Sequence record: PV841870.1
Source: Escherichia phage Pandora71
Length of the DNA stretch: 44,696 nt
Reading direction: 5' to 3' (one strand)
Shown: one piece after another, positions 40,743 through 41,255 of the stretch
Numbering within the stretch: position 1 is the stretch's first letter
Layout of the letters: every line of letters starts with the position of its first letter
The notes under the pieces: generated by a model
What the model was told of the DNA's origin: nothing
Databases searched by the model: none
The model's input: the letters and a program-made list of their open reading frames with translations, nothing else
Position numbers and translations under genes: made by a program

Positions 40743-41255
40743 TTAATCTTCCAGTTCGAAATAAGTCTCGACGATTTCTTTTAAATCTTTGTGGAAGTCT
40801 TCGACGTCGTCGTCTTCCAGTTTAGCGATGGATTTAATTTCGAACGCTTCCAGCAGATCATCAAATTCGTCGTTCGCATCGTCGTCATCACCACCGGCGA
40901 TAATCGCGGCATACTGTTTGATTTCGTCGCGCATCTCCGCCAGCGGATCGGCATCTTTCTTACCTTTGCCTTTCGCCGGTGCTTTTTTAGCCTTAGCCGG
41001 TTTTTCGTCTTCGGCGTCTTCGTCGTCGTCATCTTCTACGACTTCTTTTTTGGCCTTGCCTTTCGCGGGTGCTTTTTTAGTTTTCGCCGGTGCTTCGGCT
41101 TCATCGTCATCGTCTTCGACAACTTCTTTTTTGGCCTTAGACGGCTTCTTGTCTTCCTGCTTACCAACGGCAGCGCCAACGGTTTCATAATGTTTAGCGA
41201 TGGTTTCCAGTGCTACTACGCCGCGAGTGATCAGGTTTACGATTTGCTCAAACAT
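40743..41255 (-). CDS. charge-segregated acidic/Lys-rich repeat protein (170 aa), first gene of leftward block
   Basis: ATG 41255 with GGAGA RBS; repeats KKEVVEDDDDE and AKKAPAKGK; track ORF extends to 41435. Confidence 0.6.
   Translation of the reverse strand: MFEQIVNLITRGVVALETIAKHYETVGAAVGKQEDKKPSKAKKEVVEDDDDEAEAPAKTKKAPAKGKAKKEVVEDDDDEDAEDEKPAKAKKAPAKGKGKKDADPLAEMRDEIKQYAAIIAGGDDDDANDEFDDLLEAFEIKSIAKLEDDDVEDFHKDLKEIVETYFELED

Follow-up and report, generated by a model that had tools for sequence, protein, structure and literature searches.

In a 44,696-nucleotide (nt) stretch of DNA from Escherichia phage Pandora71 (sequence record PV841870.1; hereafter, the window), we found that the gene at 40743..41255 on the minus strand, which encodes a protein of 170 amino acids (aa), is real, conserved and under purifying selection, and heads a DNA replication and recombination operon. 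Because its position is fixed, its two end modules are constrained, its linker tolerates changes in length and no catalytic motif is present, we tentatively propose that the product, rather than acting as an enzyme, serves the phage replication and recombination module as an accessory or adaptor subunit. The gene is preceded by a leader that, on the basis of covariation, we predict to be a structured RNA.

The window belongs to a Dhillonvirus coliphage resembling HK578 and SO-1. Over the 1.3 kb surrounding the gene, it shares 94–96% identity with 175 phage records, nearly all of which are Escherichia or Shigella dhillonviruses (HK578, SO-1 and Bas14–18 of the BASEL collection, among others). 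The open reading frame (ORF) was confirmed, with homologues and purifying selection supporting it as a coding sequence, and is the equivalent of HK578 gp44, SO-1 gp46 and Bas14 gp48. These proteins belong to phrog_3127, a family of unknown function according to PHROGs, to which the product matches over its full length (E = 5.8e-53, residues 1–170 against profile positions 1–178 of 178). An earlier note, made from the sequence of the window, had described the gene as the first of a leftward block, and the gene layout confirms this; the block covers ~12.7 kb and reaches down to about 28.5 kb. Gene order in the window is the same as in HK578, where the primase-helicase (gp46) and a small helix-turn-helix (HTH) protein (gp45) are both divergent from gp44, while downstream of gp44 lie two small proteins (gp43 and gp42), an exonuclease (gp41), a gp2.5-like protein that binds single-stranded DNA (SSB; gp40) and the DNA polymerase (gp38).

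Using an exhaustive HMMER search of 1.84 billion representatives, we identified 38 clusters at 50% identity, all of the phrog_3127-type family. Counted separately at 90% identity, homologues make up 179 clusters. The gene is present in 385 phage records, including those of Dhillonvirus, in which it is near-universal, Kagunavirus, other Salmonella and Serratia Guernseyvirinae phages, Edwardsiella phages and others, and the sequence family is limited to phages of Enterobacterales. In all 70 sources compared (the window and 69 loci from Dhillonvirus, Guernseyvirinae and their relatives), the gene occupies the slot between the primase-helicase gene and the genes for a DUF2800 nuclease, a gp2.5-like SSB and PolA, and this synteny persists even though primase-helicase identity drops to about 30%. 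The same slot in Kosakonia phage Kc259 holds a protein that is remotely homologous over the basic patch and the bundle (hhalign 93.7%, E = 1.8e-7), and the C-terminus of APSE-2 P53, whose gene lies directly upstream of those for an exonuclease and an SSB, weakly matches phrog_3127 (E = 0.0014). Proteins with an N-terminal helix, a charged low-complexity linker and a C-terminal helical domain are likewise encoded before the nuclease in Proteus phage pPM_01 and Vibrio phage 1.017.O; the loci compared from other phages with the DUF2800, SSB and PolA genes were L085:1376-1858, L086:3759-4109, L087:565-1482 and L088:4751-5293.

The 170-aa protein contains 27 Lys, 27 Asp, 24 Glu and 24 Ala residues and has a net charge of −22. 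Residues 1–27 (MFEQIVNLITRGVVALETIAKHYETVG; 41175..41255, minus strand) are assigned to a conserved N-terminal amphipathic helix on the basis of AlphaFold2 (AF2), alignment and the ratio of nonsynonymous to synonymous polymorphism (pN/pS). AF2 places the helix at residues 2–23 with low confidence (predicted local distance difference test score (pLDDT) of about 53); its hydrophobic moment is 0.52, and L8, R11, V13, A15, E17, I19 and A20 are invariant. Residues 28–103 (40947..41174, minus strand) make up a polyampholyte linker in which acidic EDDDDE and KKAPAKGK blocks alternate. The linker holds two imperfect ~30-aa repeats (KAKKEVVEDDDDE..APAK.KKAPAKGK) and terminates in a retained basic patch, KKAPAKGKGKK. 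Residues 104–170 (40746..40946, minus strand) form a conserved acidic three-helix bundle, as indicated by AF2, pN/pS and hhalign, with a net charge of −19 over 66 residues (about −0.29 per residue). Structure and disorder prediction, a route to which the earlier note had pointed, was informative in both respects: the linker is predicted to be disordered (pLDDT < 50), while AF2 helices at residues 104–121, 125–137 and 148–166 compose the C-terminal bundle, with a mean pLDDT of 85–91 across residues 111–160 and of 83.7 when this domain was modelled alone.

The alternation of acidic and Lys/Ala/Pro blocks described in the earlier note is borne out. Charge segregation across linker residues 32–104, measured as a blob-wise charge-asymmetry statistic against composition-preserving shuffles, gave z = 6.6, and none of 5000 shuffles matched the observed value. 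The same note had taken the repeats as the hallmark of the protein; they are indeed charge-segregated, but they fall in its variable part and not in its conserved core. The linker is the least conserved region, ranging from 25 to 97 aa among 134 parsed homologues. Natural Dhillonvirus alleles of 115–124 aa have lost every acidic block and have only ..KKAPAKGKGKK.. left before the bundle (acidic blocks are missing in P0084, P0091 and P0097). Judging from these alleles, the linker repeats are dispensable and a single Lys-rich stretch is kept. The basic patch before the bundle is universal in the family, the shortest alleles included; other lineages have it as the AT-hook-like KRGRP, KRGRK or SRGRPKK, or as KPKRKPRKAK. 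In contrast to the linker, the two ends are tightly constrained: across 19 Dhillonvirus loci, pN/pS was 0.097 for codons 1–30 and 0.056 for the last 66 codons. Between L003-type phages and Guernseyvirinae, the N-terminal helix is 91% identical, compared with 34% for the bundle, 32% for the primase-helicase, about 51% for the SSB core and about 67% for the polymerase. Of all elements of the module, the helix is thus the one under the tightest constraint, at 91% identity against 32–67% for the enzymes.

In the proposed adaptor role, the protein would serve a module consisting of the primase-helicase, the DUF2800 PD-(D/E)XK nuclease, the gp2.5/Enc34-type SSB and annealing protein, and PolA. The N-terminal helix would dock on a partner or oligomerise, the basic patch would make low-specificity contact with nucleic acid, and the acidic bundle would engage a basic surface of the partner. 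The precedent is phage T7, in which the acidic C-terminal tails of gp2.5 and gp4 dock on T7 DNA polymerase. The two systems have in common an acidic interaction module, aromatic residues near the C-terminus (..TYFELED and ..KYYEIED) and a gp2.5-type replication module, whereas here the acidic module would be a folded three-helix bundle carried on a separate protein, and its interaction is one that we infer. The strong promoter and the terminator flanking the gene would raise the level of the protein above that of the downstream enzymes.

One candidate for the partner is the phage SSB, the basic tail end of which would be bound by the acidic bundle. The SSB of the window (37716-38519, minus strand) ends in tandem charge-block repeats (DDDDEDDKPRKSKKSKRR.. 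to PRKRRRR), with the tail lying at about 37719-37935 and showing a 54-nt period in the DNA. Acidic and basic blocks alternate in the tails of the SSBs from the window, Tsm2 and L003, that is, in 3/3 lineages checked with a strongly acidic bundle. The tail ends are basic in each of these (PRKRRRR, RRSRRRR and RPRRRSR, respectively), as well as in the Kagunavirus XY1 (RRERRRR) and in Kc259 (KKKAPARK). Tails of these kinds are missing from the outgroups pPM_01, Vibrio 1.017.O and APSE-2, and outgroups in which the counterpart of the 170-aa protein is weakly acidic or neutral have an SSB with an ordinary acidic tail. These patterns suggest a possible coupling between the SSB block tail and the acidic domain of the 170-aa protein.

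Several points weigh against the adaptor role. The SSB-tail correlation covers about six lineages, among which pPM_01 is imperfect, and the partner is a candidate only. A position beside replication genes can reflect shared regulation rather than function. Since hhalign comparisons with the Vibrio gp70 family and pPM_01 gp67 were not significant, the idea of a superfamily was kept solely for Kc259 and, weakly, for APSE-2, and the likeness of the pPM_01 and Vibrio proteins is one of architecture alone. With the recombination proteins lambda Red-beta and Orf, hhalign revealed no relationship in sequence, the probabilities being 0.06% for the Red-beta C-terminal domain and 0.2% for Orf, and the structural matches to that domain (PDB 6m9k) and to Orf/NinB (PDB 1pc6) are at the level of generic three-helix bundles. 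UniProt lists a family member from Salmonella phage MB78 as ‘13.88 kDa late protein’; should that name derive from measurement, it would argue against an early role. Finally, the Dhillonvirus defence-escape studies examined report no mutation in the 170-aa gene. A further profile search with the C-terminal domains, including those of Kc259 and APSE-2, revealed no new families.

The acidity of the bundle also fits a different role, that of a decoy similar to Ocr: the domain, perhaps as an oligomer joined by the N-terminal helix, would imitate nucleic acid and, soon after infection begins, block a host DNA-binding protein such as HU, H-NS, a restriction enzyme or some other defence nuclease. We consider this possible but unlikely. 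The C-terminal domain carries its net −19 over just 66 residues; the gene is promoter-proximal, with a near-consensus sigma-70 promoter and a terminator of its own that make high early expression likely; and the sequence family is limited to Enterobacterales phages. The protein is also small, very acidic, all-helical and promoter-proximal in the manner of T7 Ocr (gp0.3), ArdA, Arn, T7 gp5.9 and lambda Gam. However, it differs from Ocr-type mimics by its long disordered linker and its conserved Lys/Arg patch, which, lying beside the acidic domain, would be unexpected in a pure mimic. Its gene is, moreover, fixed in a replication operon and not one of the early accessory genes that vary between phages. 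Anti-defence genes mostly belong to that variable set, while this one is near-universal in its genus, holds strict synteny with replication genes in very divergent phages and has its Kc259 homologue in the same slot.

Similarity searches likewise gave the decoy role no foothold. No match to the 170-aa protein was found in Pfam. Sequence searches of the PDB with whole-family and C-domain profiles returned nothing below E = 0.007, the only matches being repeat-like ones to the Protein A B-domain. Foldseek gave a best E of 0.6 against the PDB and solely uncharacterised homologues against BFVD, among which the origin of the ‘late protein’ name came to light. Neither in sequence nor in fold did the protein resemble Ocr, ArdA, Gam, Arn, other mimics, histone H1 or anything characterised. 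The comparison with Ocr-type DNA mimics drawn in the earlier note is thus without positive support, there being no Pfam match and no relative among solved structures. The early-gene picture on which that comparison was built agrees with the first position in the block, the near-consensus sigma-70 promoter and the highly acidic C-terminal domain, while the Ocr-like role is unsupported.

The basic patch, for its part, is present in every member of the family down to the shortest alleles, and relatives carry KRGRP, KRGRK and SRGRPKK motifs. It could mark a DNA-binding protein in which the Lys/Ala/Pro or RGRP segment binds AT-rich DNA, the helix oligomerises, and the acidic domain recruits other factors or is auto-inhibitory. 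The target could be the likely origin or promoter region just upstream, or the host nucleoid, and the gene does adjoin an AT-rich intergenic region with divergent promoters. The KKAPAKGK composition is indeed like that of AT-hook and H1-like tails (HMGA, Hc1 and AlgP), and some relatives have KRGRP and SRGRPKK cores. The window allele, in contrast, has no GRP or RGRP core, and its basic runs are short (about 10–12 residues) and broken by acidic blocks that would compete with DNA. They are set in a protein of net charge −22 with a linker that is about neutral, and no DNA-binding fold was detected. With DNA binding itself putative, we judge this role rather improbable. The H1-like resemblance noted earlier therefore survives in part, in the Lys/Arg patch retained family-wide and its AT-hook-like form in some relatives, although the analogy as such has no positive support. 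A nucleoid-targeting function, also suggested in that note, fares no better, given that the repeats on which it laid emphasis are dispensable and that the gene is syntenic with replication genes. Taken as a whole, the DNA-mimic or nucleoid interpretation is a guess, and the context favours a role within the replication and recombination module. Because synteny is locked across primase-helicases that are only ~30% identical, such a role is also preferred to a host-specific anti-restriction function.

Lying beside the phage exonuclease and annealing protein, the gene has a position analogous to that of gam in gam-bet-exo, and the product is acidic and helical. It might thus be an inhibitor of RecBCD, as are lambda Gam and T7 gp5.9. 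Dhillonviruses are restricted by P2 OLD (bioRxiv 10.64898/2026.07.10.737580), a defence that RecBCD inhibitors set off. HK578 escapers from P2 OLD map to gp43, the primase-helicase and the gp45–gp46 promoter region (bioRxiv 10.64898/2026.07.10.737580), the last of which lies within the intergenic region adjoining the 170-aa gene. The escaper in this gene cluster is, however, a frameshift in gp43, which gives escape from P2 OLD (bioRxiv 10.64898/2026.07.10.737580), and not a mutation in gp44; furthermore, the 170-aa protein showed no likeness or homology to Gam, gp5.9 or Abc2. A RecBCD-inhibiting role for it is accordingly quite unlikely. The window equivalent of gp43 is the 83-aa gene immediately downstream (40443-40694, minus strand; phrog_4965), which is also kept downstream in many Guernseyvirinae loci. 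Since the known OLD triggers are RecBCD inhibitors, gp43 is a better candidate for such an inhibitor than gp44, and we regard it as a candidate RecBCD-related factor.

Other members of the module are known to set off defence systems. A type IX retron responds to the nuclease (Bas14_0045; bioRxiv 10.64898/2026.07.14.737667), retron Eco8 has the SSB as its trigger (bioRxiv 10.1101/2022.08.27.505566), and Borvo is triggered by the polymerase. Escapers from Swarozyc, SNIPE, retron IX, retron Eco8 and Borvo all map to genes other than the gp44 equivalent. Ksap1, the KpAvs2 trigger of dhillonviruses, was considered and set aside, as it is a separate 74-aa gene.

Database labels raise one more alternative, namely a structural or assembly protein: family members are annotated as ‘prohead core protein’ in phage UDS3lw and under the ‘late protein’ name propagated from MB78. 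Set against these labels, which are carried-over names, the gene is part of the replication operon and remote from the genes for the head, a dedicated scaffold gene (10766-11581; phrog_206) lies beside that of the major head protein, and PHROGs lists the family as of unknown function and not as a structural one. We therefore see very little chance of a role as a scaffold or prohead core component. Among the papers searched, none mentioned phrog_3127 or the Bas locus tags. The probability that lies beyond the readings discussed here was assigned to something not yet imagined.

We next turn to the signals that control the gene. Translation starts at the ATG at 41255-41253, preceded by a conserved GGAG ribosome-binding site, read from the sequence, 7 nt 5′ of the ATG (41263..41266, minus strand). 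The predicted sigma-70-type promoter (TTGACA-18-TATCAT; 41452..41481, minus strand) matches the consensus at 11/12 positions and is kept in the 19 Dhillonvirus loci; a promoter is annotated at the equivalent place in the HK578 record. From this promoter, which is the sole basis for the timing, we infer early expression. The terminator that the earlier note had assigned to the gene is also upheld: at 40708..40734 on the minus strand, between the gene and the next one (ATG 40694), we found an intrinsic terminator with a 7-bp all-G:C stem (GGCCCGC/GCGGGCC, 40734-40715), a 6-nt loop and a TCTTTTT tract, kept in 17/19 Dhillonvirus loci. Its T-run is short and partial read-through would therefore be expected. 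In Dhillonviruses, the hairpin occurs in two orientations, with the loop TAATCT or AGATTA on the same palindromic stem (loci L002, L070, L071, L082 and L084); the whole hairpin is thus inverted in several of these phages. Two Dhillonvirus contigs from IMG/VR carry an inserted ORF (MDYEMRIMLDFIAENW..) at the terminator position (L072:4520 onward and L073:4517 onward), which explains the two-piece matches seen among related phage records.

Many database entries give the protein as a version of 207–239 aa (for example, Opt212 gp20), with an upstream extension that runs through the leader RNA. In the window, this corresponds to a 230-aa version starting at an ATG at 41435, which we rejected, the extension (41256-41435, minus strand) crossing the non-coding leader. 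We consider it an annotation artefact because a 2-nt insertion breaks its frame in L071 and L078 and because 4/19 phages have no such stretch. The distant homologues all start at the MFEQ/MLEK methionine.

The leader itself is about 167 nt long (41277..41445, minus strand) and was delimited by a covariance model and by covariation. It begins about 7 nt past the −10 box (which ends at 41452) and finishes about 10 nt before the GGAG. A covariance model (R1), built on an alignment that includes the window allele, found exactly one copy in the window (166.9 bits). Across 14 Dhillonvirus loci, the 191-nt stretch from transcription start to start codon, which contains the leader, has a mean column identity of 97%, and columns 2–90 are identical but for one substitution, a conservation exceeding that of synonymous sites in the adjacent genes. 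The leader is nevertheless cleanly missing from 4 of 19 Dhillonvirus loci. RNAalifold returned 38 pairs, 15 of them with compensatory double changes. Among 12 sampled sequences retrieved by anchored extraction, helix P5 occurred in nine different complementary versions, the closing helix P1 in seven, and P2 and P5a in four apiece, while P3 showed G-C to G-U transitions. The leader is, on this comparative evidence, a structured RNA in which helices P1, P2, P5 and P5a covary. As the single-sequence fold is not stabler than shuffles (z = +0.83), the support comes from covariation and not from energy.

Using blastn, we found parts of the leader in the unrelated phages swan01 and PHB17 (Tempevirinae), Lumpael (Murrayvirus) and Serratia phage MQ-4, as well as in several IMG/VR contigs. 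In every carrier, its start lies about 7 nt past a sigma-70 −10 box and its end 15–40 nt before a ribosome-binding site, while the downstream ORF differs from phage to phage. A covariance model search of Guernseyvirinae loci identified no copy, and when 185,579 bacterial and archaeal genomes were scanned by pattern, the one match lay on a 42.7-kb contig of a metagenome-assembled genome. The leader had no match in Rfam 15 (E <= 1), either in the window or in four other phages, nor did a tRNA/tmRNA search return anything. Results of a terminator search downstream of the leader in other phages were mixed. These distributions are compatible with a scenario in which the leader would have been exchanged among unrelated virulent enterobacterial phages (Dhillonvirus, Tempevirinae, Murrayvirus and MQ-4-like) and placed before different genes.

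By analogy, the leader could be a factor-independent antiterminator resembling put, or else a leader that titrates CsrA. The put antiterminator RNA of HK022 is about 70 nt long and has two stem-loops. In both cases, a promoter-proximal structured RNA acts or would act in cis and heads a phage operon with an intrinsic terminator. The leader described here differs in its description, however, being about 167 nt with at least five helices and preceding unrelated genes. The second possibility stems from hairpin loops of the leader, CAGGAUG or CAGGACG, which resemble the repeats of CsrB in the CsrB/CsrC system.

Further upstream, between the divergent operons, lies a second, almost invariant unit (~41494-41586, minus strand). 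It comprises a promoter (TTGAAA-17-AATAAT with an extended TG, 41586-41558), at the site of which a promoter is annotated in the HK578 record and, ~30 nt beyond it, a hairpin (GCGCCG..CGGCGC, 41527-41503) with a run of 11 T after it (41502-41492). From its sequence, this unit looks like a gene for a small RNA of ~55–60 nt, or a strong terminator. Divergent from the 170-aa gene, at 41659-41988 on the plus strand, is the gene for a 109-aa HTH protein (Sigma70_r4/HTH_23-like), which probably regulates the divergent promoter region; the labels that it bears elsewhere (transposase, resolvase and ‘nuclease inhibitor Gamma’) are not backed by any domain matches.

Returning to the adaptor role, a more elaborate version would have the linker and the SSB tail, through complementary charge, form a condensate-like compartment for replication and recombination, with the N-terminal helix and the acidic bundle as specific anchors. 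Both this co-assembly of the linker with the matching SSB charge-block tail and the reading of the leader as a portable regulatory RNA of a new class are, in our view, doubtful.

The combination of a DUF2800 nuclease, a gp2.5-type SSB and PolA is common in phages, and its enzymes are now known as triggers of retrons and other defences. In the Dhillonvirus and Guernseyvirinae form of this module, the 170-aa protein is the only conserved, and probably abundant, component without an assigned role. It also offers a model of a linker that is free to vary in length and repeat number while the end modules on either side stay tightly constrained. Alone, the protein is of moderate interest, and the leader RNA adds to the interest of the locus. 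Should the leader have a regulatory function, it would offer a compact and transferable means of controlling early operons in several phage families, which are used for therapy and, as in the BASEL collection, in research on defence systems.

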